Source: a plasmid
Sequence record: NZ_CP024587.1
Length of the DNA: 64,000 bases
Strand: one strand, 5' to 3'
Position 1 is the first letter of the stretch. Each line of letters opens with the position of its first letter. Under the pieces are notes generated by a model. That model was not told the origin of the DNA. It worked only from the letters and a program-made list of their open reading frames with translations, and made no database searches. The position numbers and the translations under genes are program-made. Of this stretch, positions 6,332 to 60,876 are shown piece by piece.

Positions 6332-6338
6332 GGCTCCG

Positions 6339-12444: not shown

Positions 12445-12592
12445 GGTGCGAACGAGCAGCGAAGGCTGCGTGGCAATCCTCTTTCCGTTCGCATCACGGC
12501 CCGCGAGCCTGAACCCGATTGGTGCGGAGAGAGGCGAGGCATGGAGGGCAGGAGGGGAGGAGCGGGGCCGCTACCGCGAGCACCGGACACGC

Positions 12593-12655
12593 GACAAGGG
12601 TGCGTCGGCTGGCGCCTCCCGCGCCGGGGCAGGCCCCGGCTGCGCCCTTGTCCCG
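12593..12655 (+). promoter_or_regulatory. Hairpin motif copy a (CAAGGGTGCGTCGG...GCGCCCTTG) upstream of the Toprim operon
   Basis: Core ends about 50 bp before ATG 12705. Shares the GCAAGGG/CCCTTGC stem with eight other copies. Confidence 0.45.
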
Positions 12656-12704
12656 CGTCCGTCTCGCGGTTGGCGGGTGGAATCACGGTGAAGGATTCCG
12701 AGGA

Positions 12705-13658: not shown

Positions 13659-13990
13659 GCACCACCGAACGCGCGGCTCCGGCCCCGAGCCACGAAGCGT
13701 GGACCCTTGCACGGGCCCTGCACACCGCCTTTCTCCGGCTGCCCGACCGGCTGAGAGCCCGCTGCACGGTGCCGCCGACCGGGGATGCCGCGATCGACCG
13801 GCCGGTGCTGGTCGAGGCCTGCGACGGCTCCGACCACTACCGGGGCGTGGTGGTCGCGGGACAGCGCGACGAGAGCGGCCTCTGGTTGCTGGACGACGCC
13901 TTCACCCTGCTGACCCTCGACCACGACGACGGCCCCGAGGCCGCGCTTGTCGTCTGCCATGGATGGAACTGCCATGCCGACCGCATCTGA
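13655..13990 (+). CDS. Hypothetical protein, 111 aa, translationally coupled (ATGA) to the Toprim gene
   Basis: ORF in operon context. Confidence 0.4.
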   Translation: MSTTERAAPAPSHEAWTLARALHTAFLRLPDRLRARCTVPPTGDAAIDRPVLVEACDGSDHYRGVVVAGQRDESGLWLLDDAFTLLTLDHDDGPEAALVVCHGWNCHADRI

Positions 13991-24010: not shown

Positions 24011-24234
24011 CCATACCCCTGTTTCCACCCCCGCACACAAGGGAGGCCCCCATGGGCTGGCTCGTTTCCGATCGCCCCCTGACCCACGAAACCCCGGCCG
24101 CCTATCTGTCCCGGGAGTTCGCCTGCGCCAACGAGACCAACCGCACGGAGGTGCTCGCCGCGAGCCAGGTGAAGGGTGCCGTCTACCTGGCGGTGCGCCA
24201 CACCTCCCTCACAGGCGAGCGGGCTGGCCGCTCC

Positions 24235-25753
24235 TACGTAGTCGGCCTTGAACAACGTCTTCAGGCTGTCGCCCCTGCGAGCAGGGTGCGGCCTGTCGGG
24301 ACGCTGGCTTGGCTGATCGGGGTGAGGATTGCCTGTCGGAGGGCGGCGAGGAGAGCGGCCAAAAGGGCCCTGAGGTGGGCGAGGATCTTGCGGATGTTGT
24401 GGCCGCAGCCGCAGAGGACGGCGTAGAGAGCATCGCCGAGCGTGCCCTTGAGGGCGCAGCGGGCGAGGCGGCCATCGGTCTTCATGTGGCCGATCTCGGG
24501 CTCGATGGCGCTGCGGCGGCGGAGCAGCCGGCGCAGGCGGGGCGTGAGGCCGCGGCTGGTGCCGCTGACGAGCACCCTGGTTGCCGTGACGCCATGGCCG
24601 CGGTAGCCGCGATCGACCACGGCGAGGCTGGGACGCTGGCCGGTGAGGGTCTCGACCTGCTGGAGGGCGTCGGCGAGGGTGTGGCCGTCGTAGGGATTGC
24701 CGGGCTGGCTGCGCATGCCGACGACGAAGCCACCGGCGAGGGTGGTGGCGATGCTGACCTTCGTGCCGAACTCGTAGCGCACCCGCGCCTTGCCCTTGGC
24801 GATGCAGTCCACCTCGGGCTCGTGCAGGGCGTAGAGCTTGCGGGACGACTTCGGTGTCTGGAGCAGCAGGCGGGTGACGAGGGCGATGCGCTGCTCGATG
24901 CGCGCCCGCAGTGGCCCGTCAGGGACGGCGCCGAGCTTGCGTTCAACATCGCGCAGGATGCGGCCGGTGTAGCCCTTGAGCGTGCGCAACGCCTTGCGCA
25001 TGCGGCGGAACTGCCGGGCGTGGGCGTAGCGCCCCACCTGGCCGGCCAGGCGCGGCGCCAGGCGATTGTAGTTCTGGCGCAGGGCGATCCCGGCCTTGTG
25101 CGCCAGCGTCACCAGCGAGTGGCGGGCCCGCTCATAGAGGCGGCTGTCGGTCGGATGGGCGATGGCCTTCTCCATCACTGTGGTGTCCACTGCGATCTCG
25201 GCCAAGCTGTTCGACGTCACAGCTCCCGAAGCCTGAGCCGCCTCGATCGTCCTGGTCAGCAACCACTCGACACCTTCCTCACCGATGCGACCGCGCCAGC
25301 GGCTGAGAGAGGAGGGATGGATGGGCGCACGGTGCTGGAAGAAGGTCTCACCCGTGAAGTGCTGGAAGTACGGGTTCTCCACCCAGCGCGCGAGCACCGC
25401 CTCGTCGGAGAGGCCATGGGCGTGCTGGAGGTACATCAGCCCGGCGACCAGACGCGGATGCGTGGCCGGCCGTCCCTCAGCGGCGGGGAAGAAGCCGGCC
25501 CATTCCCGCTCGAACCAGGACCAGTCGATCAGCGCCGCCAGCCGCACCAGTTCGTGCCGCCCATCGATCATGTCGACCAGCCGCGGCCGCAGCAGATCGG
25601 CCTGTTCCGGCGGGCGCGGGCGGTGCTTCATGCCCACAAGATTCGCAGGGTTTGTCGTCGAAAACAATCGAACCCTGCAAATCCAGGTCGCCGAGCCCGG
25701 AAAATCTCACAGCTAGATCAGTGCCTTACGAGTTATTCAAGGCCGACTACGTA
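24235..25753 (-). mobile_element. IS5/IS1182-like insertion sequence, 1519 bp, 22-bp terminal inverted repeats TACGTAGTCGGCCTTGAA(C/T)AAC, no obvious target duplication
   Basis: IRs read directly at 24235-24256 and 25732-25753. One transposase ORF inside. Confidence 0.7.
24261..25667 (-). CDS. DDE transposase, IS5-family (IS1182-like)
   Basis: 468 aa. InsH-like N-terminal region (LLRPRLVDMIDGRHELVRLAALIDW) and a DDE-type C-terminal region. Family call is approximate. Confidence 0.7.
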   Translation of the reverse strand: MFSTTNPANLVGMKHRPRPPEQADLLRPRLVDMIDGRHELVRLAALIDWSWFEREWAGFFPAAEGRPATHPRLVAGLMYLQHAHGLSDEAVLARWVENPYFQHFTGETFFQHRAPIHPSSLSRWRGRIGEEGVEWLLTRTIEAAQASGAVTSNSLAEIAVDTTVMEKAIAHPTDSRLYERARHSLVTLAHKAGIALRQNYNRLAPRLAGQVGRYAHARQFRRMRKALRTLKGYTGRILRDVERKLGAVPDGPLRARIEQRIALVTRLLLQTPKSSRKLYALHEPEVDCIAKGKARVRYEFGTKVSIATTLAGGFVVGMRSQPGNPYDGHTLADALQQVETLTGQRPSLAVVDRGYRGHGVTATRVLVSGTSRGLTPRLRRLLRRRSAIEPEIGHMKTDGRLARCALKGTLGDALYAVLCGCGHNIRKILAHLRALLAALLAALRQAILTPISQASVPTGRTLLAGATA

Positions 25754-32398: not shown

Positions 32399-32616
32399 CT
32401 CGGCCTTGGACCGGCCGTGCAAAAAGAAAGGCGGCGCCCGAGGGTGCCGCCCAAGTTTAGGGAGGAAACGTCCAAGTAAGGCGGCAACCCAGCGGGTGCC
32501 GTGTCGCCGCACCCCGCACCATGACCCAGGCTGCCCTTCGGGTCCAATCAAATGACGCGCCGCAGCAGAACGGGCCGAGCCGGTGTCCTCGTGCTCCGCT
32601 CTCATGCCTGGGATGT

Positions 32617-32850
32617 TGGAAAGCCGGAAAGCCGGAAAGCGGGAAATCGGGAAACACGGAAAGCGGGGGAGAGGAGGAGCAGGAGCGCTGGCATCCGGGC
32701 ACCGCCCGGCACCGCTTCGCTCCACGGCCGCCTGCGCAGCCCTGCCCCGCTGGGCCGCAGCCCGCCCTGCCGGGCTGGGCCGCGTCCGGCGACGGGTCAG
32801 GGCCGCTCGCCCGCCGTGGTGCCGGACGGCCCCCGGCCGCCGGCGTGGGA
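32617..32850 (+). promoter_or_regulatory. Regulatory cassette C: six tandem 8-bp repeats GGAAAGCCG/GAAAGCGG/GAAATCGG/GAAACACG then a ~170-bp leader paralogous to cassette B
   Basis: Read directly. Confidence 0.5.
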
Positions 32851-32906
32851 GGGGTCAGCCCAGGAATGGGGTGACGGGAACCCCGGTCCGGAGAGCCACT
32901 CTCGCC

Positions 32907-34673
32907 ATGAAGATCGTCCACGCCAACCCGCGCAAGCTGCGCGACAACCCCGAGAACCCCCGCCGCACCAGGCCGAGCGCGGAGGCCGACGCGCAGTTGC
33001 TCGCCAATATCCAGGCGGTCGGCATCCTGCAGCCGCCCACCGCGCGCGAGATCGCGGGTGAACTGGTCCTGATCGCCGGCCACCGTCGCCGCGACGCGGC
33101 CATCAAGGCGAAGCTGAAGGAGATCGCCGTCCTCGTCCGCGAGCCCGGCGACGACGCCGCGCAGGGCGGCGACGGCGTGCGGGCGCTGGCCGAAAACATG
33201 GTCCGCACCGCGATGAGCCCGGTAGACCAGTGGCGCGCCGTCGAGGCGCTGGTCGGGGAGGACTGGACCGAGGACGCCATCGCAGCCGCGCTGAACCTGC
33301 CGGTGCGCCGCATCCGCGCCCTGCGCCACCTCTCGCGCGTGCATCCGGCGATGCTGGACCACATGGCACGCGGCGACATGCCGACCGACCAGCAGCTCCG
33401 CACCATCGGCCTCGCCTCGGCCGAGGATCAGGCCTCGGTCTGGCAGAGGAGCAAGCCGAAGCGCGGCGAGCGCGCCCACTGGCACGGTATCGCCGCCGCC
33501 CTGGAGAAGCGCCGCATCCCCTTCGCCGTCGCCAGGTTCGGCGAGGCCGAGACCGAGGCCTTCGGGATCGTCTGGCAGGACGACCTGTTCGCCCCCGCCG
33601 GAGAGGAGGGCCGCTTCACCACCCAGCTCGACGCCTTCCTGCAGGCGCAGCAGGCGTGGCTGGAGGCCAACCTGCCAGACCGCGCCGTGCTCCTGGGCCT
33701 CGACGAGTGGGGCCGCGTCATGTTCCCCAAAGGGGCGCAGGAGCTCTACTACAAGCAGCCCCGCGACGAGTTCGACCGCATCGGCCTCACCGTCGATCCG
33801 CGCTCCGGCGAAGTGCGGCAGACGCTGTTCCGGGAGGCACCGCCCCGCGAGGAGCGCGGTGGCCGGGGCCGTGAGGCATCGGCCGATGGCACGGTGCTGC
33901 CCAAGGTCACCCGCCCGCCGCTGACCCAGAAGGGCGACGCCATGGTGGGCGACCTGCGCACCGACGCGCTGCACGAGGCTTTCGCGCAGGCCGAGATCCC
34001 GGACCAGACCCTGATCGGCCTGCTCGTGCTCGCGCTCGCCGGGCAGAACGTGCAGGTCCGCAGCGGCGCCAAGGGCGACGACCTGTACGCCGGAGCGCGC
34101 GCCGCGATCGCCGCCGGCCTCCTCGAAGGCGGCGTGCTCACCGCAGACGCGGACGCCCTGCGTGCCGCCGCCCGCGCCATGCTGCGCCAGGCGCTGTCCT
34201 GCCGGGTGGGCTTCTCCACCTCGGGCCTGGTCGCCCGCTACGCCGGGGTGGCTGTCGATGCCGACGCCTACCTTCCCACCACCGCCACCGAGGAGTTCCT
34301 GGCCCATCTGAGCAAGGACGCGATCATGGGCACGGCCAGCGCCAACAACGTGGCGCCGCGCAACACCGGCAAGGCAACCCGTGCTGCGGTGGTCGAGCGC
34401 TTCAAGGGGCAGACCTTCCTCCACCCGCTGGTGCGCTTCGCGCTGACCACGGAGGAGCAGCGCAAGTTGGCCGAGCAGCGGCAGCGGGAGGAGAGCCGCG
34501 CCGCCCTGCGCGCCAGCTGGCAGTCCTCTGGGGAGGATGATGGGGAGGACGAGAGCTCCGGCGAGGAAGAGACCGCGGGCAACATGGATATGGATGGCGA
34601 GGAGGTGGATCTCCCTACCGATGGCCTCCATCCGCCGTCCGGCAGCCAGCCCCCGGTTGTCCATACCACCTGA
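32907..34673 (+). CDS. ParB/Sulfiredoxin-domain protein (ParB-like nuclease/KorB-like), 588 aa with long C-terminal extension
   Basis: N-terminal MKIVHANPRKLRDNPENPRR...LIAGHRRRDA is ParB-box-like (GHRR). Acidic tail. Confidence 0.7.
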   Translation: MKIVHANPRKLRDNPENPRRTRPSAEADAQLLANIQAVGILQPPTAREIAGELVLIAGHRRRDAAIKAKLKEIAVLVREPGDDAAQGGDGVRALAENMVRTAMSPVDQWRAVEALVGEDWTEDAIAAALNLPVRRIRALRHLSRVHPAMLDHMARGDMPTDQQLRTIGLASAEDQASVWQRSKPKRGERAHWHGIAAALEKRRIPFAVARFGEAETEAFGIVWQDDLFAPAGEEGRFTTQLDAFLQAQQAWLEANLPDRAVLLGLDEWGRVMFPKGAQELYYKQPRDEFDRIGLTVDPRSGEVRQTLFREAPPREERGGRGREASADGTVLPKVTRPPLTQKGDAMVGDLRTDALHEAFAQAEIPDQTLIGLLVLALAGQNVQVRSGAKGDDLYAGARAAIAAGLLEGGVLTADADALRAAARAMLRQALSCRVGFSTSGLVARYAGVAVDADAYLPTTATEEFLAHLSKDAIMGTASANNVAPRNTGKATRAAVVERFKGQTFLHPLVRFALTTEEQRKLAEQRQREESRAALRASWQSSGEDDGEDESSGEEETAGNMDMDGEEVDLPTDGLHPPSGSQPPVVHTT

Positions 34674-35693: not shown

Positions 35694-36392
35694 ATGGACA
35701 CCCTGGTTGAGCGCGCCCTGCGCTCGGCAGCCGAGGATCTCGGCCTTTCGCCCGATGGATGGAGCCGGATCCGGGGCGATTCCGGCACGAGCCAGGCCTT
35801 CCGGCACACCGCCCGCCCCGCCCTGGTGGTCGAGGTGAGCATGGATGGGCCCGGATGGAGCTGGACGGCCAGCCTGGCGAAGTCGCATCGCCAGCCCGCC
35901 CTTGGTCCTGCCCAGCCCTGGGCGTGCATCGACGGCCTTGCCGTCCGGGTCAGCCCCAGCCAGCGCGGGGCGCTCCTCGATGCCCTGGCGATCGCCGGCG
36001 ACAACATCGCGGAGGCCAACGCCTGCTCGACCGCGATGCTGCAGACCCGCCTGGACGTGCTGGTCAGCCGTCGCGGTTTCGACCTGTTCGTCGCCCCCGT
36101 GCAAAACCTCGACAGGAGGCAGGCCGAGCCGGCTGCCCCGCTGCGCCTGGATTGGAGCTACCGAGGGCAGACGCCGGACGGCGACGACGTCGCGGGCGTC
36201 GTTCAGGGCGCAGACGAGGCCGAGGCCATCGAGGCGGTCGAGCGCCTCTGGGCCGGCCTCGACCTCATGGAGCTATCACCACGCCTCGCCGGGCTGGCGC
36301 CCTTGTCCTCCGCTGCCCGCCGCTTGGCCGAAGATGGATTGCGGCAGGCGGGAGCCCAGGGGCCCGCATCGGGTCTGCCCGCGCTGCACTGA
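35694..36392 (+). CDS. Hypothetical protein, 232 aa
   Basis: ORF with a GGAG RBS. Followed by a strong palindrome. Confidence 0.4.
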   Translation: MDTLVERALRSAAEDLGLSPDGWSRIRGDSGTSQAFRHTARPALVVEVSMDGPGWSWTASLAKSHRQPALGPAQPWACIDGLAVRVSPSQRGALLDALAIAGDNIAEANACSTAMLQTRLDVLVSRRGFDLFVAPVQNLDRRQAEPAAPLRLDWSYRGQTPDGDDVAGVVQGADEAEAIEAVERLWAGLDLMELSPRLAGLAPLSSAARRLAEDGLRQAGAQGPASGLPALH

Positions 36393-36424
36393 TCCTCCCA
36401 CCCCCCGAAACAGCCATCGGCATC

Positions 36425-36458
36425 GCGAACGGCAGGGCCTGGGCCCTGCCGTTCGCGT
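36425..36458. terminator. Perfect hairpin GCGAACGGCAGGGCC-TGG-GGCCCTGCCGTTCGC followed by GTTT; terminator of the upstream gene and/or operator of the MTase gene
   Basis: Read directly. Only a short T-tract. Confidence 0.35.
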
Positions 36459-36475
36459 TTCAGGAGCCCCGCGCC

Positions 36476-38284
36476 ATGATTTCCGAGCACGGCCACGCCA
36501 CCATTCTGCACGCCCACCTCTTCGCCGGCCTCGGCGGAGGTGCCCGCGGCTTCAACCGCGCCACCTCGCGGGTGGGCAACCTCACCGCCAGCTTCCGCTG
36601 CCTCGGCGGCATCGACGTCGACGCCGGGGCGATCCGCGACTTCGGCCGCCTCGCCGGTGTGCCCGGCACCTGCATGGACCTGTTCGACCGCGAGCAGTAC
36701 CGCGACTTCCACGGCCAGGAGCCACCGATCGGCTGGCGCGAGGCCACCGTGGACGATGTGCGCGCCGCCTTCGGCCACGAACGCCCCCACGTCCTGTTCA
36801 CCTCGCCACCCTGCAAGGGCTTCTCCGGCCTGCTCAGCGAGACCAAGAGCAGGACCCGGAAATACCAGGCGCTGAACCGCCTGACGCTGCGCGGCATCTG
36901 GCTGGCGCTGGAGGCCTATCGCGACGATCCGGTGGAGCTGATCCTGCTGGAGAACGTGCCGCGCATCGCGTCGCGCGGGCGTCCCCTGCTCGACCGGATC
37001 ACCGGCCTGCTACGCGCCTATGGCTACGCCGTGGCCGAGACCACCCATGATTGTGGGCAGTTGGGTGGCCTGGCGCAGTCGCGCCGCAGGTTCCTGCTGG
37101 TGGCCCGCCACACCGCCAAGGTGAAGCCCTTCCTCTACCAGCCGCCGAAGCGCCCGCTGCACGGCGTGGGGGACATTCTTTCCCGGATGTCCCTGCCGGG
37201 CGATCCGGCGGCCGGGCCGATGCACCGGGTCCCGATGCTGCACTGGTCCACCTGGGTCCGGCTCGCCTTCGTCGAGGCCGGAAGCGACTGGCGTTCCCTC
37301 GGCAGGCTCAAAGTCGAGGACGGGATGTTGCGCGACTACGCCCTTGCCCCCTGCGGCGAATGGCGCGGCGGCGTTCTCGGCGTGAACCGCTGGGACGAGC
37401 CGTCCGGCACCGTGGCGGGCCGTTCCGGTCCCTCCAACGGCGCCTACAGTGTCGCCGACCCGCGCCGCGCCGAAGGCGTGGCCGCCTTCGGGCAGTACGG
37501 GGTCAAGCGCTTCGACGAGCCGTCCCAGGTGGTGATCGGCAAGGCCGCGGTCGGGGCCGGCCATTTCGCCGTGGCCGATCCTCGCCACGCCGGGCCGCCC
37601 AAGCACAGCAACGAGTTCCGCATCGTCCCCTGGGACGGGGCCGGACGGGCGGTCACAGGCGCCCATGGCACCGGCCAGTGCGTGGCGGATCCGCGCGGAG
37701 ACGTGCGCCGCTCCGGAGCGCTGGGCGTCGTGTCGTGGGAGTCCAATGCCGGCACCGTGGCGGGTGAGAGCCTGCCATCCAACGGCACCTTCGCGGTCGC
37801 CGATCCCCGGCCGCGCCTGGAACGGGAGAAGGGTGACGACTACTACGGCGCCGGCCATTACGGCGTGGTGCCGTGGCGGGAGCCCACGGGTGCCGTCAGC
37901 GCCGCCGCCGGCTACGACAACGGCCGCTGGAGCGTGGCGGACCCCCGCCCGATCCTGCCCAGCGCGACCGAGAAGGTCGTGGCCCGCATCCGCGCCCTCG
38001 ACGGCACCTGGCACCGGCCTTTCACCACCGCCGAGCTGGCGGCGCTGCAATCGTTGTTCGACCCGGAGGAGCAGGCCGAGCTGGACGGGCTGAGCGATGC
38101 CGACTGGCGCGAGCGCATCGGCAACGCCGTCCCGCCCGACGCCGCGCAGGCCATCGCCGAGACGATGGGCCGCACGCTCCTGCTGGCCTGGTCGGGCGAG
38201 GGCTTCATGCTCTCGGCCCTGCCGATCTGGGTACGTCCGGTCGCGGTGGCCCTCTCCGTACGCCAGCCCCAGGACGAGGCCTGA
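36476..38284 (+). CDS. dcm: DNA (cytosine-5) methyltransferase with an unusually repetitive variable (TRD) region
   Basis: Motif I LFAGLGGGARGF, motif IV PPCKGFS, motif VI ENV, motif VIII QSRRRF, motif X GNAV. Between VIII and X are five roughly 40-aa repeats, each ending in VADPR. Confidence 0.85.
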   Translation: MISEHGHATILHAHLFAGLGGGARGFNRATSRVGNLTASFRCLGGIDVDAGAIRDFGRLAGVPGTCMDLFDREQYRDFHGQEPPIGWREATVDDVRAAFGHERPHVLFTSPPCKGFSGLLSETKSRTRKYQALNRLTLRGIWLALEAYRDDPVELILLENVPRIASRGRPLLDRITGLLRAYGYAVAETTHDCGQLGGLAQSRRRFLLVARHTAKVKPFLYQPPKRPLHGVGDILSRMSLPGDPAAGPMHRVPMLHWSTWVRLAFVEAGSDWRSLGRLKVEDGMLRDYALAPCGEWRGGVLGVNRWDEPSGTVAGRSGPSNGAYSVADPRRAEGVAAFGQYGVKRFDEPSQVVIGKAAVGAGHFAVADPRHAGPPKHSNEFRIVPWDGAGRAVTGAHGTGQCVADPRGDVRRSGALGVVSWESNAGTVAGESLPSNGTFAVADPRPRLEREKGDDYYGAGHYGVVPWREPTGAVSAAAGYDNGRWSVADPRPILPSATEKVVARIRALDGTWHRPFTTAELAALQSLFDPEEQAELDGLSDADWRERIGNAVPPDAAQAIAETMGRTLLLAWSGEGFMLSALPIWVRPVAVALSVRQPQDEA

Positions 38285-41743: not shown

Positions 41744-42525
41744 GTTAGTCAATCATCCTGGACGCCAGTCGGGCAACCGTTCGGACCCAAGGCTCGCACG
41801 GCGCATCTTCAACGCCTGGCGCATCGGAACCGCCATGCCGATGCCCGACATCGCTCGCCTGCTGGACGTCTGCGGCCATGGGGCGGCTGCCAGCCGGATG
41901 CGCCAGACGGCGCTGGAGGGCGGCAGCAATCCCGGCCTGACCCTCGAAGAAGTCACCGATCTCATCTCCTGCTGGGCGGACGAAACACGGGCTGCGCGAC
42001 GCAACGCCACGCCTTGAGGCGGGCTCGCGGGGTGCCCCCTTTCGCCGCCGTCGACCGCGATCCCGCGGAAAGGATGGCATTGGCGCCGCTGATGCCCGGC
42101 TCCTGACCAGTCCATAGAGGTCGGATCAGGGATAGGATGGAGGGGGAGGAGGGGAATAGAGGAGATTGGAGACGGGCCAGGGGAGATGTCCGAAGGACGA
42201 GAGTGGGGAGACGTGTGTCGGCTACCTGCCCGTGCCGGCCGCATATCCTCGGGGTGCTGCGGTCTGAGCCACGGCGCCGGCCGCTCCTACCCCCGCTTTC
42301 CCCGAAGCCGGGGAAAGCGCCTCCGGCTCGGCACGCTCGGTCAGGGGCCGGGGCCGCGCCTTGCGCGGGGCGATGCCCCGCTGCGGCGCAACCCCAACCC
42401 CCTCCCTCACATGCCTCGGGGGTAGGACCGCCCGCCACCGCGCCTCTGTTCGACCGCACCCGAGGATACGCGACCGGCACGGGCCGGAAGCCTCTTCGGG
42501 GAGAGAGAATGAAGAGGATCTGACG

Positions 42526-43014
<489 letters not shown>

Positions 43015-46058: not shown

Positions 46059-46545
46059 GCCCCGCCATGGATGCAGCCGACCCACCATCCAAACCGGCCC
46101 CTGTCCAGCGTCCCGGCCAGCCAGCCCGATCCCGCTCGCGCCGGCCGCATCGTCGCCACCCCTGGCCTGCCCTTCGAGCACAACCGCGGCGTCTGCGGCC
46201 GCTGGGGCGCTCTGCGCCTCGCCTACGATCCCGCCAAGGGCAGCGACGGCACCTGGTTCTGCGAGGCACACGTCCCCGCCTCCTTCCACCGCTACCGTGG
46301 CGCCTGAGCCGTCTCGGCAAGACCGGCAGCAGAAACAGGGCACGTCCCCGCAAGCGGGGACCGGGCTCTACTCGGCCGCTTCGCGACCTCCCCAAGCCCC
46401 CTTCGGGGTCTTGGCCCTTCGGGTGACGATCCCTCGCGCAGGCGCCTGACCCCGGTGTAAACAGCAGCGGCCGCAGAGCAGGCTGAGCCGTCTTTCCTCG
46501 CTGGCGATGGCTTCCGCAGCGCCCGTCACCCGTTCCGGCGCCCCG

Positions 46546-46812
46546 TGTGTGGATCAGCCTTTCCCTCGCCCCTCTCTCCGGGCGGTAGCAGGACCGGGCT
46601 CCGCCCTGGCACGCCGGCTTAGGGCGACGACCCCGCGCCGCTGGCATGGCGAGTATTCGCTTGGCATTGCAAGTATAGCCGAAATATTCATGCGTCTCGA
46701 TTTGCCCCCGCCATGCCATCGTCTCGGGGCAGCCGCCCACGCCCGCGCACCAGGCCGGAACCCGGTCCTACTACCTGAGAGATGCGCGAGGGAAAGGCTG
46801 ATCCACACAAAC
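46546..46812. repeat. Long imperfect inverted repeat (arms about 70 bp at roughly 85% identity, spacer about 125 bp AT-rich) inside an 800-bp non-coding region; cruciform / MITE-like / structured RNA candidate
   Basis: Left arm GTGTGTGGATCAGCCTTTCCCTCGCC...GGACCGGGCTCCGCCCTGGCACGCC pairs with the reverse complement of ...GCGCACCAGGCCGGAACCCGGTCC...GCGAGGGAAAGGCTGATCCACACAAAC. Confidence 0.5.
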
Positions 46813-47106
46813 CTCCCGGCGCGCCTCCACTACCGTCCGTGCGCGCCCTCAACCCCCCCACAAGGGGGGGGCGTCGGACGCGCAACCTCCGGCGGGCAAA
46901 GGGCTCCGCCCTCTGCACTCCCGGCGCTCAGGAAAGTCTGATTATCTTCCTATTACTTGGGATGCCGCAGTTGATCGTTAGACTTTTACTGTGGACACCG
47001 GGCAGGATTACTTATATTCTTCTCTTGTTCCCGAGAGAGGGAACGGCCGGAAGGGCGGGCTGGAACCCCACCCCCCCGGCCTCACCAGAGACAGGAAATC
47101 GGATCA

Positions 47107-47822
47107 TGTCCCAGGCTCAGCAGAACATCGCTTCCGGCACCGTTTCCGACAAGGGCGAGGCTGACAACGCCATGGCCCAGGCCATCAAGGGCGCTACCCC
47201 CCGCAAGCCCGCTTCCAACAAGGGCAAGGGCAAGCAGCCCCAGCCCGCCAAGGACCAGGCCCGCGCGCCCGTTCGCGGCTCCATGGGCAGCCGCCAGACC
47301 ATCACCCTTGCCACCGCCGCCGCCCAGGCGCCCACCGCCGACCAGATGGCCCGCATTTGCAGGATGTTCGGCACCGAAGCCGTGGACGTGGACGGCATCC
47401 ATTCCGCGACCTCCGACAGCCTCATGCAGCAGGCGGAAGCCCTCCGGCCCAACCTCAGCGACAAGGCGATGGAGATGCACTTCCAGCGGATCGTCGGCGC
47501 CTATGTCGGCAGCGCCTATGGAGCCGCGCAGTTCTACGACGCGAAGCGCCTCGTGGCCCGCGACATGGCCAGCAAGTTGAACGAGATGCGCGACGAGGAC
47601 CGCGACGGCCCGAGCGGTTTCGAGAGCCGCTTGGAGCGTGCCCAGATGTTCGCCGCCGACATGGCCGCTCAGAGCTTCGCCACCCTGGCCGCCGCGGAAG
47701 GCGCGGTTGCTGCCTATGCCGAGATCACCGGCAACGAGTGGAAGCCTTACGTCGCCAACACCCCCGACACCCAGGCCGTCAGCCGTCAGGCCGCCACCCT
47801 CCGCGCTTCCGCTTTCGACTGA
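47107..47822 (+). CDS. Hypothetical protein, 238 aa, Ala/Gln-rich, lower GC
   Basis: MSQAQQNIASGTVSDKGE... with an AGGAAA RBS. Preceded by an AT-rich promoter-like tract at 46920-47100. Confidence 0.45.
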
Positions 47823-53200: not shown

Positions 53201-53290
53201 CGGCGCTACGTCCTGCTGCCGAAGGCACAGGATGAGATCTTGCCGTATCGCGACGCCAAGGCGCCGCCTGATATGCGAGCGGCTATTGGG

Positions 53291-53378
53291 CATCGGGCGA
53301 GCATCGCGAGGGCATCGGGCGAGCATCGCGGAGGCGTCGGGCGAGCATCGCGGGAGCATCGGGCGAGCGCCGCCCGAG
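53291..53378. repeat. Four tandem roughly 22-bp direct repeats (CATCGGGCGAGCATCGCGRGG) in the divergent intergenic region between the accessory gene and the relaxase operon; oriT/iteron candidate
   Basis: Read directly. Followed by the IR CGGGCC-TGC-GGCCCG at about 53465-53480. Confidence 0.45.
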
Positions 53379-53556
53379 TTTCGCGGGAGCGCCGCTCGGT
53401 CAGCCGATGTGCGGGTGGCGAGCAGGTAGACAGGCAGCTCCATACACCATTGCACCCTATGTGCGCGGGCCTGCGGCCCGATCCCCTTTCCGACACGTCG
53501 GATTCTCCGTTCGCATGGACCATCGGCAGGCTCTTCCCCGGTCAAAGGAGAGCCCC

Positions 53557-53874
53557 ATGGACGGCGCAGCCAACACCACCCCGATGCGAACGGCGGAAAC
53601 GGAAAGCAGGATCCTCGATCTGCTGCAGGAACACGGCGTCATCCTGCGGACCCAGAGCGAGCAGCTGGCCGCGATCCTCAAGGCCCTGACGCCCCCGCCG
53701 CAGGAAGGGCCCACCACGAGCGAAATGCTGCAGGCCATCATCGCCCTGCTGGGCGAGCACACCACGCTGCTGCAGGACAACAACGGCCACATCCTGGCCC
53801 TCCCGGCCTCCCTGCCGGGGCTGGTCGCCCGCGAGATCCGCCGCGGCCAGCGCCTCGGGGATCTCGCCGAATGA
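53557..53874 (+). CDS. Small protein (105 aa) immediately upstream of and ATGA-coupled to the relaxase; candidate relaxosome accessory (TraC/TraD-like)
   Basis: AAAGGAGAG RBS. Confidence 0.45.
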   Translation: MDGAANTTPMRTAETESRILDLLQEHGVILRTQSEQLAAILKALTPPPQEGPTTSEMLQAIIALLGEHTTLLQDNNGHILALPASLPGLVAREIRRGQRLGDLAE

Positions 53875-56800
53875 TGACCTTCCGCAAGCTCTCGGCCGCC
53901 GGCTCGGGCAAGCTGCTCCGCGCCTACTTCACCGAGAACACCCCCGAACCCGCGCGCGACCCGGCGACGACCCCGGGCCGACACCTCGACCCCGGCGGCC
54001 GCCTGACCGCCTACTACACCGGCCGCGACAGCCGCGCCTCCTGGCGGCCCGACATGCCCCGCGCCATCGCCAATGCCCTCGGCATCGACACCACCCGCAT
54101 GCCGAAGGACGAGGCCCTCGACCGGCTGTTCGAGGCCAGGCGCGCCGACACCGGCGAGGCCTGGTCCGACCAGAAGCGCGAGATCAGCGCCTACGACCTG
54201 ACGCTCGCGCCGCACAAGTCGGTCTCCCTGGCCGCCGAGTTCGCCGCCACCCCGGCCGAGCGCGCCGCCATCTGGTTCGCCATCGACCGCGCCAACGATG
54301 CCACCATGCGCTACGTCGCCCGCGAGCTGGGCTGGGCCCGCAAGGGCAAGGGCGGCTCCCTCGGCGCCGATCCGGGGGCGGTCGGATGGGTCAGCTTCCG
54401 CCACCACACCGCCCGCCCCACCGTCACCGTCCGCGACGGCAAGGCCGGCCCCACCTACCTCGCCGAGGTCACCAGCATGGCCGGCGACCCCCATGCCCAC
54501 ATCCACAACGCCCTGTTCAACGCCGTCGTGACCGAGGACGGCCGCGTCGGCTCCCTCGACACCCAGCGCCTCCATGCCCGGGTCCACGAGTTCGGCGCCT
54601 ACTTCCAGGCCCGGCTGGCCGACCACCTGCGCGAATTGGGCGCCCGCGTCTCCTACGACCGCCAGCAGCAGGCGGCGGTGCTCGACGCCATCCCCCAGGC
54701 GGCCTCCGACCTCTTCTCCAAGGGCCGCCGCCAGGTCGAGCGCTCCGCCCGGGCCTACGCCAGCAGCCAGGGCCTCGACTGGGACACCCTCTCGGCCGAG
54801 GGCAAGTTCAAAATCCTGGCCACCTCCGGCCTCGCCGCCCGTCTCGACAAGAACGCCGCCAAGGGCGACCGGGAGACCTGGCTGGCCCAGGCCGAGGCCA
54901 TCGGCTGGCGCCACGTCACCGTCATGGAGGAGGTGGAGCACACCCGCCTCCCCGACGCCGAGCGCCTCGACCGCGCCTACCGCTTCGCCGCCCGGCACCT
55001 GGCCACCGAGTTCCACACCGCCGCCGTCATCGACCACGACCGGCTGCGCCTCCACGCCGCCCGCGGCCTGATCGGCACCGGCATCGGCGGCGGCACCGGC
55101 GACATCGACCGGGTGGTCGAGCTGATCGAGCAGCGCGGCATCACCCTGCGCGGCGAGCACGTCGCCCTGCTCGTCGGCCTCTCCGGAGACAAGGTGCGGG
55201 TGACCAACACCGCCCAGCTGCGGCTGGAGGAGAGCCTGCAGGCCCAGGCCCACCGTGCCGCCCGCGATCGCTCGGGCGCCCTCCCGGCCGCCGCCATCAC
55301 CGCCGCGATCGACGCCGCCATCCGCGCCGGGCGGATCGACCTCACCCGCGAGCCCGCCCAGGCCGCCGCCCAGCGCGCGGCCATCTACGCCCTCGGCCAG
55401 GGCGGCGCCCTGTCCATGCTCACCGGCGTCGCCGGTGCCGGCAAGACCACCCTGCTGCAGCCGCTCGTGGCCGCCTGGAAGGCCGACACCCGCTTCGGCG
55501 CCGGCGGGCGCGAGGTGATCGGCGCGGCGACCGCCTGGCGCCAGGCCAGCGCCCTGGGTGATGCCGGCATCGAGCATACCGTGGCCATGGACCCGCTGCT
55601 GCGGAGCATCGAGGCCGGCCGCCTGGTGCCGACCCGCAACACGGTGCTGGTGATCGACGAGGTGAGCCAGGTCGCCCCGCGCGCCCTGCTGCGGCTGCTG
55701 GAGGTGCAGGCCCGCACCGGCATGACCATCAAGGTGCTGGGCGACCGCGAGCAGGCGCAGTCGGTCGAGGCGGGCGACGCGGTGGAGCTGATGCGCCGCG
55801 CCCTGCCCCGCTCCGAGCAGGCCGAGCTCCTCGACACCGTGCGGCAGGCCAGCCAGGAGGACCGCCACGTCGCCGGCCTGTTCCGCGAGGGCCGCGCCGC
55901 GGAGGCGCTGGCCCTCAAGCGGGCCCGCGGCGACGGCTCCGCCCGGCTGCTGGGCGGCGACCAGGACCAGGTGGTCGAGCAGATCGCCGACCTCTACATG
56001 GCCCGGCGCGACGCCCTGCTGGCCGCCGGCTCGAAGCTCGGCGTCACCATCTCGGCCCCCACCAACGAGGACGTGGCCGAGATCAGCCGCGCCATCCGCG
56101 GCCGCATGAAGGCCCGCGGCGAGATCGGCGCCGACGAGGTGGCCTACCAGGCGATCGACCAGCGCGGCGAGACCTACGACCTGCCGATCGCCACCGGCGA
56201 CAGGGTGCGCCTGTTCAGCCGCACCTGGGCGACGCTACCGGACGGGAAGCACACCTACATCGGCGCCAATGGCGACGTGCTGACCGTGGTCGGGCAGAGC
56301 CAACAGGGCCTGCGGCTGCGCAACAAGGACGGGTTGGTCGGTGACGTCGAATGGCAGCGGCTGCAGGACCGGGCGACGGGGCGGCTGCAGCTGGGCTTCG
56401 GGCATGCGCTGACGGTGGACGCGGCCCAGGGCATCACCTCGGCCGAGCACATCGACGCCCTGCCGCGCGGCACCGCCGGCGTCACCGCCTTCAAGGGCTA
56501 CGTCGCCGAGAGCCGCGCCAAAGGGACGACCTGGACCCTGATCTCCGAGGCCGCCACCTTCGAGGCGATCAAGCGTGGCCGGGCGCTGGGCGACGCCACC
56601 CCGATCACCAGCGAGGACCTCTGGGCCAAGGCGGCCGAGGGCCTGTCGCAGAAGCCCTACAAGCCGCTCGGCAGCGACCTGCTGGAGGACATGCGCGCGA
56701 GCCGCGAGAAGGCCACCAGCGCCTTCATCCGCTTCTCGCACCGCATGGAGATGGCGGAGCACCAGGGCCGCGACTTCGCCCGCGAAGTCCGCGACCACCG

Positions 56801-56993
56801 CGAGGCGATGGCCATCCAGGCCGAGATGCCGCGCAACCTCACCGCGCTGGACGAGGCGCTGCGGCAGATGCGGGGCGGCGCCGTCACGCCGGCGGAGGAG
56901 CACCTGCGGCGGCTGCGCGTCGAGACCGAAGTGGCGCGACGGGAGATCGAGGCATCGGTCCGCCCGTCGTCGCCCTCTGCAGCGGTAGGGTGA
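53871..56993 (+). CDS. traA: MOBF-family relaxase with C-terminal SF1 helicase (TrwC/TraA-like)
   Basis: Relaxase motif III-like HHTARP...GDPHAHIHNALFN (His triad). Walker A GVAGAGKTT about 500 aa in. 1040 aa. Confidence 0.85.
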   Translation: MMTFRKLSAAGSGKLLRAYFTENTPEPARDPATTPGRHLDPGGRLTAYYTGRDSRASWRPDMPRAIANALGIDTTRMPKDEALDRLFEARRADTGEAWSDQKREISAYDLTLAPHKSVSLAAEFAATPAERAAIWFAIDRANDATMRYVARELGWARKGKGGSLGADPGAVGWVSFRHHTARPTVTVRDGKAGPTYLAEVTSMAGDPHAHIHNALFNAVVTEDGRVGSLDTQRLHARVHEFGAYFQARLADHLRELGARVSYDRQQQAAVLDAIPQAASDLFSKGRRQVERSARAYASSQGLDWDTLSAEGKFKILATSGLAARLDKNAAKGDRETWLAQAEAIGWRHVTVMEEVEHTRLPDAERLDRAYRFAARHLATEFHTAAVIDHDRLRLHAARGLIGTGIGGGTGDIDRVVELIEQRGITLRGEHVALLVGLSGDKVRVTNTAQLRLEESLQAQAHRAARDRSGALPAAAITAAIDAAIRAGRIDLTREPAQAAAQRAAIYALGQGGALSMLTGVAGAGKTTLLQPLVAAWKADTRFGAGGREVIGAATAWRQASALGDAGIEHTVAMDPLLRSIEAGRLVPTRNTVLVIDEVSQVAPRALLRLLEVQARTGMTIKVLGDREQAQSVEAGDAVELMRRALPRSEQAELLDTVRQASQEDRHVAGLFREGRAAEALALKRARGDGSARLLGGDQDQVVEQIADLYMARRDALLAAGSKLGVTISAPTNEDVAEISRAIRGRMKARGEIGADEVAYQAIDQRGETYDLPIATGDRVRLFSRTWATLPDGKHTYIGANGDVLTVVGQSQQGLRLRNKDGLVGDVEWQRLQDRATGRLQLGFGHALTVDAAQGITSAEHIDALPRGTAGVTAFKGYVAESRAKGTTWTLISEAATFEAIKRGRALGDATPITSEDLWAKAAEGLSQKPYKPLGSDLLEDMRASREKATSAFIRFSHRMEMAEHQGRDFAREVRDHREAMAIQAEMPRNLTALDEALRQMRGGAVTPAEEHLRRLRVETEVARREIEASVRPSSPSAAVG

Positions 56994-57045: not shown

Positions 57046-59493
57046 TCAGCCGGTCGGGTCGGTGCGGAAAGCCGCCCGTTCCCGGTGCTTCGCCAGGAGC
57101 TCGGAGGCCCGTTCCAGGATGCCGCCCGGCATGCCCGCCCTGGCGGCCACGCGCAAGCCGTAGGACTGGCCCGCCCGCCCGGGCTTGACCTTGTAGGCGA
57201 ACATCTCCTCGTGCCGCCCGGCCGCGGCGTCCATCATCATGCAGGCCCCGTGCTCCATCGCCTCGGCGACGTCGGCGAGCTCGTGGTAGTGCGTCGCGAA
57301 CAGCGTGCGGCAGCCCACGACGTCGTGCAGGTACTCCATGCACGCCTGGGCGATGGCCAGGCCGTCGTGGGTGGAGGTGCCCCGGCCGACCTCATCGAGG
57401 ATCACCAGCGAGCGATCGGTCGCCTGGTTCATGATGGCCGCGGTTTCCAGCATCTCCACCATGAAGGTCGAACGGCCGGCGGCTAGGTCGTCGGACGCGC
57501 CGATCCGGCTGAACAGCTTATCGACGATCCCGACCCGGGCGTGGCTCGCCGGCACGAAGGAGCCGATCTGGGCCAGCAGCACGACGATCGCGACCTGCCG
57601 CAGGAAGGTGGACTTGCCTGCCATGTTGGGACCGGTCAGCAGCCACAGCCGGTTGCCGCCTCCCATCACGCAGTCGTTCTGCACGAAGGTCCGGCCCTGC
57701 CCTTCCAGCAGTCGCTCCGAGACGGGATGACGGCCGCCCTGGATGGCCAGCACGCCCTCGGTGGTCAGCTCCGGCTCGGTCCACAGGCTCTCGGCCGCTG
57801 CCTGGGCCAGCCCGCACACGAGGTCCAGCGCCGCCGCCGCATGCGCCACCCGCATCAGCGCTTCGCGGAGGCCCAGCACCGCTGAGGCGAGGGACCGGAA
57901 CACCGCCTGCTCTACCGATCGGGCCTGTTCCGTGGCTGCCTCCAGGGCGCCGGCGAGCTGATCCAGCTCCGTCGTCGAGAAGCGGGTGGTGGACGCCAGA
58001 CCCTGTCGCAGCCGGAATTCGGAACCGAGGCCCCTGGCGGCAGCGGAGGGGACTTCGACATGGTACCCGAGTACCAAATTGGATCGGATCTTTAGGGTCT
58101 TGATCCCGGTCTCCTGCGCGTAGCGGCCCTGCAGCGCCTCGATCGCTGCCTTCGTCGCCTCCACCTCCGTGCGCAACTTGTCCAGGCGCTCGTCATACAG
58201 CGGGGCGACGAAGCCCGGCTCGGTCACCGAGAGGGGCGGCGCCGCGATCAGGGCCCGTCGCAACATGGCGGCCACGCCGCGCCGCACGCCCTCGGCGGCG
58301 CCAAGCTCCCGACGGGCCGTCGCCAGGCCGGGTGGCAGATCCGAACTCTCGTCCAGGCGCGCCGTCAGCACGGCGGCACAGCCCAGACCGTCCCGCACCG
58401 CTGCAAGGTCCCGGGGGCCGCCCTTGCCGAGCGACAGGCGTCCGCAGGCCCGCAGCAGATCAGGCATGCCGGACAGGCCTTCCCGGCAGCTGCGGCGCAG
58501 GCCGACGTCCGCCACGAGGTAGCGCACCATCGCCAGCCGGCGGCCGATCACCTCAATGCTGGTCAGCGGCGCGCAGAGCTGGCGCCGCAGCAGCCGGGCG
58601 CCGGCGGCCGTCACCGTGCGATCAAGTACCGCGAGCAACGACCCTTCGGCACCGGACGCCGAGTCCAGCACTTCCAGGCCCCGCAGGGTCGGTGCATCGA
58701 TCTCCATGGTGTCGCCAGTCGCCGCCCGGCGCGGTGACGGCAGCGCCGCCGGCAACTGCCCGACGACAACCCTGACATGGTCCAGCAGGGCGGCCAGCGC
58801 GCGCAGCTCCGGCGGCGAGAAGCCACGCATCGCGGTCCGCCCGGCCGGTCCGAACGCCTCGGACAGCACGGCCTCGACCGCTTCCGGCGTCAGGGACGGA
58901 CGGCCGAGGTCGCCATGGCGAAGGCCCGCGCTGCGGATGGCGACGGCGAGCGCATCCGAATCCTCGGGCCACTGTGCCACCAGGATCTCGGAAGGGCCAA
59001 TGCGGGCCAGGGCCGGCCCGCATCCCTCGAGCGAGGCCATGCAGGTGCTGATCTCGCTGGTGGACAGGTCGATCCAGGCGAACGCCACCGCCCGACCCTC
59101 GGCCAGGGCGACGGTCAGGTTGTTGGCCCTGCCCGCAACCAGCACGTCGGCATCGACCGAGGTGGCCGGCGTCATCAGACGCAGGGGGCGCTCGCCCCCC
59201 GCCTCGACGGGCTGCTCGGAGAGAGCGACCCTGTGCCCGGCGGCCAGCAGGCGGGCGACGGCCCCGGCGGCACTGGCCGATGGCACGCCGCACATCGGCA
59301 CGTCGGGCGCATCCCTCTGCCGCCGGTGGGTCAGCTGCAGGCCGAGCGCCCGGGAGGCGATCGGGGCATCGGAGCCGAGGATCTCGTAGAACTCGCCGAC
59401 CCGGTACAGCACCAGGTAGCCCGGCGCCGCCGCGCTCGCCTGCGCGTGAGCGGCCATCATCGGGCTGGCGGGGGGCCGGGTAGGTGTGTCCAT
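57046..59493 (-). CDS. mutS: MutS-family mismatch-recognition ATPase, full length (815 aa)
   Basis: Domain I motif LYRVGEFYEIL (the GxFYE Phe-x-Glu mismatch-contact motif). C-terminal ABC ATPase TGPNMAGKSTFLRQVA ... LVILDEVGRGTSTHDG. Confidence 0.8.
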   Translation of the reverse strand: MDTPTRPPASPMMAAHAQASAAAPGYLVLYRVGEFYEILGSDAPIASRALGLQLTHRRQRDAPDVPMCGVPSASAAGAVARLLAAGHRVALSEQPVEAGGERPLRLMTPATSVDADVLVAGRANNLTVALAEGRAVAFAWIDLSTSEISTCMASLEGCGPALARIGPSEILVAQWPEDSDALAVAIRSAGLRHGDLGRPSLTPEAVEAVLSEAFGPAGRTAMRGFSPPELRALAALLDHVRVVVGQLPAALPSPRRAATGDTMEIDAPTLRGLEVLDSASGAEGSLLAVLDRTVTAAGARLLRRQLCAPLTSIEVIGRRLAMVRYLVADVGLRRSCREGLSGMPDLLRACGRLSLGKGGPRDLAAVRDGLGCAAVLTARLDESSDLPPGLATARRELGAAEGVRRGVAAMLRRALIAAPPLSVTEPGFVAPLYDERLDKLRTEVEATKAAIEALQGRYAQETGIKTLKIRSNLVLGYHVEVPSAAARGLGSEFRLRQGLASTTRFSTTELDQLAGALEAATEQARSVEQAVFRSLASAVLGLREALMRVAHAAAALDLVCGLAQAAAESLWTEPELTTEGVLAIQGGRHPVSERLLEGQGRTFVQNDCVMGGGNRLWLLTGPNMAGKSTFLRQVAIVVLLAQIGSFVPASHARVGIVDKLFSRIGASDDLAAGRSTFMVEMLETAAIMNQATDRSLVILDEVGRGTSTHDGLAIAQACMEYLHDVVGCRTLFATHYHELADVAEAMEHGACMMMDAAAGRHEEMFAYKVKPGRAGQSYGLRVAARAGMPGGILERASELLAKHRERAAFRTDPTG

Positions 59494-59949
59494 TATCGAG
59501 AGATGCCGCGTCCCCGGCCCGGTTTCCAGTTCGTCCAGGCGGTGCCGCCCGCCATGTCCCCGGCTGCGAGGTGCGGGCCCGGGTCGGCATCGGTAGCGCC
59601 GAGTTTGCCCGGACCTACGCCACCGTGCCGGTCCGGGCGGATGCGGTGCTGATCTCCCTCGGCGCCAACGATGGAGCCCGATCCGATACCCTGGAGCAAC
59701 TGGCGGCCGTCCGCGCCGCGGTGATCGCCCGCCGGGTCACCTGGGTTCTGCCAGCCCGGGGAGAGGCCGCCCGCTCCACCTCCCCCAGCCGGCGCGCCGG
59801 CAGGCCGGCGACCCCTCCGGCCGACACGCCCGCCGGGGTGGCGGCGACCGCGACCAGGAAATCGAGCGCCGTCCGCACGTCCCGTTCGGTGATGAAGTGC
59901 GGATGATCGGGGCCGCGATAGCAGATCGGGATGGCGCACGGGACGAAGG

Positions 59950-60876
59950 TCACGACGTAGCCTCCTGGGCAACGCCGGTCAGGGGCGGCCGCCGCTGTGG
60001 GCGTCGCAGGTTGGCTGGTGGCAGGGCCGGCGTGCCGGCGCGGGCATACCGACCCCAGCCGACGCGAACGACCTCGCCGGACGCCTGCAGGGCGCGGAGA
60101 TGGCCGGTGACGTTGGAGATCGAACGGCCGACATGGCCGGCGATCTCGCCCGCCTGACGCGGCTCCGACAGGAAGCTCAGGATGGCATCGCCCACCCGCC
60201 GCCCCCGCGTGCGCGAATCTCCACCGCAGGGCGCCGGCAAGGCAACCAGTCCGGCAGAACGGGTCCCGGTCGGGGCGTAGAGGCCGGGCCCCAGGTGGGC
60301 CACTTCACCGCGGCGAAGCATCGCCTGCAGCAGGTCGTTCATCCGGGCCGGGGGCAGGCCCAGGAGCCTCGCCAGATGGAAGCTGCGGATCGGCCGGGCG
60401 GGCTCGGCAAGGACCGCGCCCCGCGCCAGCATCCGGACCAGGGCCTGGCGCTGGGAGGGGGTCGGCACCCGGATCCCGGCCCGCCGCCATGATCCCTGCG
60501 GGCCACGCTCGGCGGCACCGAGGCGCATCAACGCCTCCACCTCGGCCCCGATCACGGCGGGCGGCAAGGCGGTATGGGACCATAGATGGGCCAGGGATAC
60601 CCCGCCGGTGACCGGCAAGGCCGCGGCAATGCGACGGCTGGCGGACCACTCCGGGTCCACCGGGCCATCCCGCAGCTCGGCTACGGAATCGGTCCGGATC
60701 ACGAGGTCCTGGCAGTAAGGGCGCAGATGGTCCCGGGCGGAAAGCCCGAGCAGCACCAGCGCCACCTCGGCCGGGCTCGCATCGCACTCCCGCGCGAGAG
60801 CGCCCACGCCGAGAGGGCGTGTCAGAGCCGTCCAGAGCCTCGCCGCCAGATCGCCCGCCAGCTCCTGACCGGCCAT
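59950..60876 (-). CDS. Winged-HTH DNA-binding protein (about 308 aa) translationally coupled (ATGA) to the coupling-protein gene
   Basis: Start at MAGQELAGD. wHTH-like segments GDLAARLWTALTRPLGVGALARE and ILSFLSEPRQAGEIAGHVGRSISNVTGHLRALQASGEV. Confidence 0.45.
   Translation of the reverse strand: MAGQELAGDLAARLWTALTRPLGVGALARECDASPAEVALVLLGLSARDHLRPYCQDLVIRTDSVAELRDGPVDPEWSASRRIAAALPVTGGVSLAHLWSHTALPPAVIGAEVEALMRLGAAERGPQGSWRRAGIRVPTPSQRQALVRMLARGAVLAEPARPIRSFHLARLLGLPPARMNDLLQAMLRRGEVAHLGPGLYAPTGTRSAGLVALPAPCGGDSRTRGRRVGDAILSFLSEPRQAGEIAGHVGRSISNVTGHLRALQASGEVVRVGWGRYARAGTPALPPANLRRPQRRPPLTGVAQEATS

Follow-up and report, generated by a model that had tools for sequence, protein, structure and literature searches.

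Single-strand promoters and priming signals set plasmid expression in the first minutes after entry, including that of anti-restriction and SOS-control genes. To our knowledge, experimental demonstrations of single-strand promoters are confined to enterobacterial IncF and IncI plasmids; searches for further promoters in single-stranded DNA (ssDNA) have largely proceeded via similarity to the known ones or via the Escherichia coli promoter consensus. Structured single-strand sites also start complementary-strand synthesis, as exemplified by the G4-type and phiX174-type (PriA) signals. Another described type is the "A site" of the ABC primosome, reportedly presented as a DnaA-box hairpin for single-strand initiation (ssi) by Masai, Nomura and Arai in 1990 and by Masai and Arai in 1995; the A-site templates described consist of a short hairpin with a single DnaA box. 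At such a site, DnaA loads DnaB on SSB-coated single strands, followed by primase (PMC6127211). New ssDNA promoters in pESBL were found independently of homology, by sliding-window DNA-fold mining for hairpins (PMC12672017). Here, we describe a giant hairpin, H1 (264 nucleotides, nt), in a 64,000-nt stretch of the plasmid record NZ_CP024587.1 (the window, numbered from its first letter), and argue that it is probably, if by no means certainly, a cis-acting signal working on the single-stranded plasmid, i. e., an Frpo-like ssDNA promoter and/or a priming site.

H1 lies in a gene-free region (46308-47105) between an open reading frame (ORF) of 78 aa (46071-46307, plus strand) and one of 238 aa, here called p238 (Table 1). 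A first-pass annotation of the letters alone had described an 800-bp non-coding island with an inverted repeat of about 70-nt arms around a 125-nt spacer. The repeat exists and goes far beyond chance, its arms, however, measure about 105 nt and its loop 57 nt, and the island is not uniformly empty but holds at least five separate conserved features. That it is the largest gene-free stretch could not be confirmed either, as a rough gene call based on GC content at third codon positions leaves longer ORF-poor stretches, for example 23004-24260 and 59494-60875. The arms join three collinear repeat segments of 36, 40 and 30 nt (92, 80 and 80% complementary) around a 57-nt centre with 45.6% GC, the window as a whole having 70.4%. 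Folded as ssDNA, the region 46530-46830 reaches -121.9 kcal/mol (z -13.7) on the minus strand and -94.8 kcal/mol (z -10.2) on the plus strand, a fold that none of 100 shuffles equalled, and the minus-strand structure comprises 98 Watson-Crick and 6 G.T pairs. Above the perfect basal stem stands an imperfect core that reads TCGCgCAtCTCTCaGG/TAGTAGGAC opposite GTCCTGCTAccgcCCgGAGAGAgGgGCGA on the minus strand, with a 4-nt bulge on the 3' arm of that strand; a comparable bulge is found in hairpins of the H2 type introduced below.

Across the 64 kb, a scan of 1062 segments of 300 nt by DNA folding, with energies corrected for GC content, leaves two outliers, H1 (z -5.8) and a second giant hairpin, H2 (z -5.55), both on the minus strand, the next best segment reaching -3.7. 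The minus strand is favoured by 27 kcal/mol in H1, by 24 in H2 and by 19-34 in all nine other copies of H1. A strand-neutral test, in which one arm is aligned to the reverse complement of the other and the mismatches are classed, avoids any bias of the folding program and gives the same picture: 7-12 positions in the H1 arms would be G.T on the minus strand compared to 0-1 on the plus strand, and 10-13 would be purine-purine mismatches compared to 2-7. Thus, the mismatches are of tolerated kinds (G.T, G.G, G.A) when read on the minus strand and of the worst kinds (A.C, C.C, C.T) when read on the other. A lean in this direction, though a weaker one, is also seen in the validated Frpo1 and Frpo2 hairpins of plasmid F.

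BLAST hits of the island lie in plasmids of Roseomonas gilardii and R. mucosa (75-97% identity), and PLSDB has H1 in Roseomonas plasmids only, with one copy in each (the two places found per record being the palindrome matching itself). In an alignment of eight sequences, 25 of 90 pairs of H1 carry compensatory changes. A distant copy in Plastoroseomonas hellenica (locus L021), whose 238-aa protein is 45% identical, has the same hairpin, with both partners exchanged in seven pairs of the basal stem and the arms still 94% complementary; the basal stem of the L021/L055 type has been rebuilt through compensatory changes, and sequence and mismatch positions of the core are unchanged in these two copies. 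The core with its purine-purine mismatches and the 4-nt bulge are the two features of H1 that never change. A scan of the metagenome collection with the conserved core yielded three contigs, each with the hairpin 320-400 nt upstream of a p238 homolog (66, 49 and 42% protein identity) and each folding best on the minus strand, and all H1 copies found stand 300-400 nt upstream of such a homolog. The p238 gene, in turn, is always co-oriented with ssb and the relaxase gene.

H2, which emerged from an inverted-repeat search of the whole window, immediately precedes ssb and folds with -127.7 kcal/mol (z -9.95) on the minus strand versus -103.4 kcal/mol (z -4.7) on the plus strand; among eight Roseomonas plasmids, 14 of its 103 pairs are compensatory. 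Komagataeibacter oboediens pKOB1 (-89.9 kcal/mol, z -9.5) and contig L018 (z -4.0) have related hairpins ahead of ssb, and these share the core TCAGRCCGCAG, the 4-nt bulge and a CCCGAGG paired to CCTCGGGTGCGG. At the position of H1, locus L017 has a different hairpin of about 190 nt (z -6.2), the apex of which (L017:2750-2800) is 98% identical over 46 nt to that of the ssb hairpin of L018 (L018:90-140). Because of this identity, the hairpins ahead of p238 and ssb are regarded as one family, and the shared apex suggests, as far as sequence can tell, that modules have been exchanged between hairpins. Frpo1 and Frpo2 of F are likewise related to each other (PMC9849209).

The window represents the leading region of a conjugative repABC/MOBF plasmid of the Roseomonas type (Acetobacteraceae). 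The genes for ArdC, SSB, the ParB_N protein, two methylases, UvrD and the Toprim/DUF3991 protein are all encoded on the plus strand and point at a gap resembling an origin of transfer (oriT; about 53250-53560) ahead of the relaxase operon, with about four direct repeats of GGGCGAGCATCGCG at about 53290-53370. The candidate nic region reads GCGCAC-ATAG-GGTGC-AATGGTGTAT/GG and resembles the nic site of R388, a hairpin with the proximal arm GGTGC followed by nine single-stranded bases, the nick and a purine (PMC4176350). Leading genes use the transferred strand (T-strand) as template (PMC11541004), and the layout of plasmid F is alike, with leading genes that point to oriT in the same direction as the tra genes. 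From the nic-like motif, the F-like layout and the template rule for MOBF leading genes, we infer that the minus strand is the transferred one and that its entry starts at about 53.45 kb and proceeds to lower coordinates.

The basal stem of H1 contains the DnaA box TGATCCACA twice, at 46548-46556 (minus strand) and 46799-46807 (plus strand), and the two form one duplex box in the folded strand. Only three exact matches occur in the 64 kb, two of these in H1, with 0.29 expected. This sequence is the high-affinity DnaA box of Caulobacter crescentus (PMC4285127), and it is invariant in six of six Roseomonas-type copies of H1.

Leading-region context, specificity in the fold scan, strand bias, compensatory pairing, the fixed gene partnership and the DnaA box are the reasons why we lean, with somewhat better than even confidence, toward a signal acting on the single strand. 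Upon conjugation, the minus strand would be nicked near 53.45 kb and enter the recipient 5' to 3', so that H1 would arrive about 6.6 kb and H2 about 11 kb into the transfer. On the transferred strand, each region would snap back into a duplex-like rod of about 100 bp with its fixed mismatches and 4-nt bulge. As in Frpo/ssi of F and ColIb-P9, this rod might recruit RNA polymerase, which would transcribe down the 5' arm into p238 (H1) or ssb (H2) before a complementary strand exists, and the hairpin transcript could also prime DNA synthesis. In the Roseomonas lineage, the basal stem of H1 would in addition rebuild a duplex DnaA box, at which DnaA could load DnaB and primase; the two mechanisms are compatible. 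Once the plasmid is double-stranded, the hairpin would be gone and p238 would run from P2, a predicted ordinary promoter between H1 and the gene. Of the second origin that the first-pass annotation had offered for the island, the ssi half fits this single-strand reading, which is the best supported, in strand asymmetry, covariation, leading-region position, the H2 twin and the DnaA box; the oriV half finds no support in a repABC-type replicon without iterons at the island.

Several observations, however, weigh against such a function. An all-against-all blastn comparison with Frpo1/2 and ssi1-3 returned chance 9-10-mers only, i. e., no homology. No canonical sigma-70 -35/-10 pair was found on the arms of H1 by a hexamer scan (sigma-54 sites being looked for by eye), and the promoter-like hits of H1 span the unpaired apex only and are not conserved in L021 and L003. 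The missing pair carries little weight, since the same scan is blank on the validated Frpo2 of F, and sigma-70 promoters may be weakly defined in this lineage. For a simple Frpo, it is also awkward that P2 provides p238 with a conserved ordinary promoter of its own. H2, all ssb hairpins, H1 of the L021/L055 type and L017 lack the DnaA box, which is thus a lineage extra rather than the basis of the hairpin class. Of the six distant p238 loci looked at first, three (L019, L020 and L022) are devoid of a giant hairpin and L018 is doubtful, so that the hairpin is dispensable for the p238 gene; in one copy (L006), an IS5 insertion (L006:2078-3000) leaves little of the left arm. The association with ssb is not universal either, since Acetobacter orientalis pAOF1 has no strong hairpin upstream of this gene. 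Finally, the identity of the transferred strand is drawn from analogy and from a nic-site resemblance, and the G.U pairs of the minus strand would suit RNA as well as DNA.

The strongest of the alternatives, though an unlikely one, is a regulatory palindrome of double-stranded DNA, i. e., a cruciform or paired protein sites in the duplex that control p238 from P2 or an apex promoter. Its binders could be DnaA at the two inverted boxes, 242 bp apart, or a repressor on AAGTATTCG...CGAATACTT. The apex indeed carries promoter-like hexamers on both strands (TTGGCA-N16-AATATT and TCGAGA-N17-TATACT), several homologs combine a perfect 9-bp apex palindrome with GAATACTT half-sites in P2, a gene for a helix-turn-helix regulator lies downstream, and the 24-bp basal stem is sequence-invariant within the Roseomonas lineage. 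Yet a function in the duplex predicts neither the bias of mismatches toward one strand nor a basal stem rebuilt throughout by compensatory changes; moreover, the apex motifs are missing in L021 and L003 and not enriched elsewhere in the window, and H2 has none of them.

A structured minus-sense RNA, antisense to the leading genes, is decidedly improbable. Such a leftward transcript would form a long double-stranded RNA and might act as an RNase III substrate or antisense regulator; besides the G.U pairs already mentioned, a promoter-like site on the minus strand of the apex speaks in its favour. This site would, however, transcribe one arm only, there is neither a conserved minus-strand promoter to the right of the hairpin nor a terminator, Rfam offers no match to H1, and the Frpo of F, which is known to act as DNA, shows the same bias. 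Of the structured small RNA considered in the first-pass annotation, this minus-strand version is accordingly what is left, Rfam excluding a known family and the C.A, C.C and C.T mismatches disfavouring an RNA of the plus strand.

Very little speaks for a miniature inverted-repeat transposable element (MITE), the remnant of an insertion sequence (IS) or another selfish palindromic insertion devoid of plasmid function, an option likewise raised at first pass and rejected here. Long terminal inverted repeats around a short centre would fit, as would the absence from L019, L020 and L022, which implies gain or loss as a block between the conserved element R1 (see below) and P2, and IS5 elements are inserted next to the hairpin in two plasmids. 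However, a self-comparison of the island with the window gave no further copy, the PLSDB records have a single H1 per plasmid and none outside Roseomonas (complete host chromosomes not being searched for H1), and the single scan of the whole metagenome collection gave three contigs only, all from the same locus. In addition, no flanking direct repeat is visible, and the stem is kept by compensatory changes across protein divergence down to 42-49% identity. As it is single-copy and consistently precedes one and the same gene family, H1 is not a MITE. Despite two DnaA boxes and an AT-rich centre, a vegetative replication origin (a second oriV) is scarcely credible, considering that repABC-type RepC is encoded 42 kb away, that iterons and an adjacent initiator gene are lacking, that the L021/L055 form has lost the boxes and kept the hairpin, and that a similar hairpin without boxes stands upstream of ssb.

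Table 1. Features of the window and of the H1 island (strand left blank where none is assigned).
Feature	Position	Strand	Remarks
repABC-type RepC	3074-4441	+	Pfam
imuB-dnaE2 mutagenesis cassette	4814-9581	+	Pfam
Toprim/DUF3991 protein	12519-13658	+	Pfam
UvrD	13947-16013	+	Pfam
ArdC	22029-23003	+	Pfam
Methylase-helicase, 1705 aa	26851-31968	+	Pfam
ParB_N protein	32583-34673	+	Pfam
C5 methylase	35759-38284	+	Pfam
Giant hairpin H2	42219-42492	-	ends 34 nt before ssb start codon at 42526
SSB	42526-43014	+	Pfam
R1	46338-46440	+	about 100 nt; closing stem P0, stem P1, hairpins A-D; six stems
Giant hairpin H1 (264 nt)	46546-46809	-	left arm 46546-46651, AT-rich apex 46652-46708, right arm 46709-46809
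Basal perfect 24-bp stem of H1	46546-46569		partner 46786-46809
Conserved imperfect core of H1	46570-46596		partner 46764-46785; fixed purine-purine mismatches
C7-ACAA-G8 hairpin	46840-46884		outer stem TGCGCG/CGCGCA, internal loop, C/G stem
Conserved block CCTCCGGCGGGCAAAGGGCTCCGCCCTCTGCACTCCCGGCGCTCAGGAAAGTCTG	46886-46940		just upstream of promoter; nearly invariant in all homologs including L021
P2, predicted ordinary double-strand sigma-70-type promoter for p238	46992-47020	+	TGGACA-N17-TATTCT
p238, 238-aa gene	47106-47822	+	AGGAA Shine-Dalgarno at 47093-47097
Candidate nic region of oriT	53437-53466	-	resemblance to R388 nic site only
MobF/TrwC relaxase	53871-56993	+	Pfam

A widespread element of the island is R1, which alone gives BLAST hits in plasmids of Methylobacterium, Skermanella, Bradyrhizobium, Mesorhizobium, Sphingomonas, Caulobacter and others. 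Across Alphaproteobacteria, its covariance model hits 47 places in 39 fetched loci, and the window as well; 94% of the cells are paired, compared to 80.6% for shuffled and 33-53% for slid controls, compensatory changes are seen in 18 of 31 pairs, and the joiners GGGCTCTACTCG and GACGATCC are invariant. R1 has no match in Rfam 15, and a literature search for its core sequence returned unrelated primer hits only. It stands upstream of the p238 family in six of six distant loci examined (E 2.4e-13 to 0.11, the two weakest being 0.012 and 0.11), and also upstream of ardC in Skermanella and of a thermonuclease gene in Methylobacterium, while 19 of 20 genes downstream of R1 copies have no Pfam domain. 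Copies that share a locus all face one way, for example those at L009:5003-5101, 6374-6472 and 7929-8026 or at L010:2297-2396 and 4998-5092, and further copies occur in L017-L050. R1 shows no obvious promoter or terminator of its own, and its wobble pairs (14 versus 18 by strand) give no strand signal; the loops can be read as UNCG (plus strand) or as C-GNA-G (minus strand), and the working form may be either RNA of the plus strand or DNA of the minus strand. Exact matches to the R1 core are also present in contigs labelled Winogradskya (Actinomycetota), Ectopseudomonas/Pseudomonas, Acidimicrobiia and Binatia (L031, L046, L049, L028 and L040), which could reflect either transfer beyond Alphaproteobacteria or mis-binned contigs. 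In plasmid 1 of R. gilardii (L001:11930-12010), a block of catB, a GST gene and repeated units that each combine a tyrosine recombinase with RelE/ParE ends inside hairpin D of R1.

To the right of H1, the C7-ACAA-G8 hairpin pointed out at first pass is borne out (C run at 46853-46859, G run at 46864-46871), lying within a longer stem whose outer part is kept via compensatory changes in Roseomonas homologs; the hairpin is deleted in L021 and is a lineage-specific accessory. As it has no T-tract, it is not an intrinsic terminator, and no terminator-like site was seen on either strand. Rfam holds no family for this hairpin at gathering score over the whole window or at E up to 10 over the island, and H1, tried as a known RNA family over the same ranges, was rejected likewise. 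The Rfam check proposed earlier thus left the island without a match at gathering score, the best hit having an E of 0.32 and 17.6 bits. The AT-rich, promoter-like tract that had also been noticed is real (46930-47030, 41.6% GC) and includes P2, at the aligned position of which L021 has TTGACA-N17-TATAGT; in hairpin-less lineages, the equivalent region reads TTGCAG-N17-CTATTC. An IS5 lies within this tract in another plasmid (L005:3583-4485). A perfect palindrome, AAGTATTCG-N4-6-CGAATACTT, occurs at the apex of the H1 homologs L002:3330-3420, L004, L006, L007 and L054, and half-sites reading GAATACTT or ATTACTT are found in P2, the motif places in the window being 46651-46659, 46955-46962 and 47009-47016. 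Judged by their sequence, palindrome and half-sites together look like a predicted operator for a local repressor, and AAGTATTC, considered as a window-wide operator, is not enriched. The gene behind P2 starts at 47106 rather than at 47107 and is only slightly lower in GC (68.3%) than the window, so that its description as a lower-GC gene stands in weakened form. Its product has no match in Pfam, NCBIfam or PHROGs, and all of its 311 homologs are unnamed.

Elsewhere in the window, the plasmid carries a full-length MutS homolog (57046-59493), and the UvrD and Toprim/DUF3991 genes (12519-16013) share the orientation of the leading genes. The sole Rfam match of the window at gathering score is a full-length suhB/mmgR (RF00519; 32414-32489, minus strand, 57.2 bits), located in antisense orientation to the leading genes, about 90 nt ahead of the one for ParB_N.

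Among the described systems, the likeness is closest to Frpo/ssi1-3 of IncF and IncI1 plasmids (class 1 of the ssDNA promoters) and to the hairpins of classes 2 and 3 of pESBL. These are transferred-strand hairpins of 200-330 nt that stand ahead of ssb and other early genes in the leading region; their apex is AT-rich, their imperfect stem has mismatches at fixed places, a plasmid may have more than one of them, heading different operons, the T-strand folds better than its complement, and the same kind of fold scan detects them (PMC12672017). H1 correspondingly is a long, very stable imperfect hairpin in the inferred transferred single strand, positioned in a leading region where that strand would be the template of the gene behind, and Frpo1 and Frpo2 of F fold with comparable energies (-137 and -119 kcal/mol). 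It differs in that its arms carry no recognisable -35/-10, that its host is an alphaproteobacterium of 70% GC with a repABC/MOBF plasmid, and that about 300 nt with a separate ordinary promoter lie between hairpin and gene. With the A site, H1 of the Roseomonas type shares a single-strand hairpin stem that rebuilds one consensus DnaA box, here the host-type TGATCCACA; in contrast, its rod is about 100 bp long, and the box is confined to one H1 lineage and absent from H2. R1, whose clustered short hairpins end in C-GNA-G triloops on the minus strand, recalls the G4-type and phiX174-type (PriA) signals, although we know of no sequence relationship between these and either R1 or the giant hairpins.

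H1 and H2 thus represent two candidates, backed by covariation and strand bias, in a high-GC alphaproteobacterial plasmid family of human-skin Roseomonas. If they are active, the mechanism would be general and its recognition rules broader than a rebuilt -35/-10, and R1 would add a widespread motif to it. A bolder and rather doubtful proposal is that hairpins of the H1/H2 type and R1 form a hitherto undescribed set of transferred-strand signals of alphaproteobacterial conjugative plasmids and integrative and conjugative elements, which would start transcription or complementary-strand synthesis and be recognised otherwise than by a rebuilt sigma-70 promoter; the features recognised may be the purine-purine mismatch core with its 4-nt bulge, the DnaA box or the R1 junction. 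Since homology to Frpo fails and promoter boxes cannot be made out, H1 is not filed as an Frpo member. In our analysis, the best-supported placement is that of a signal which would work like the Frpo/ssi and A-site families without being filed under either.

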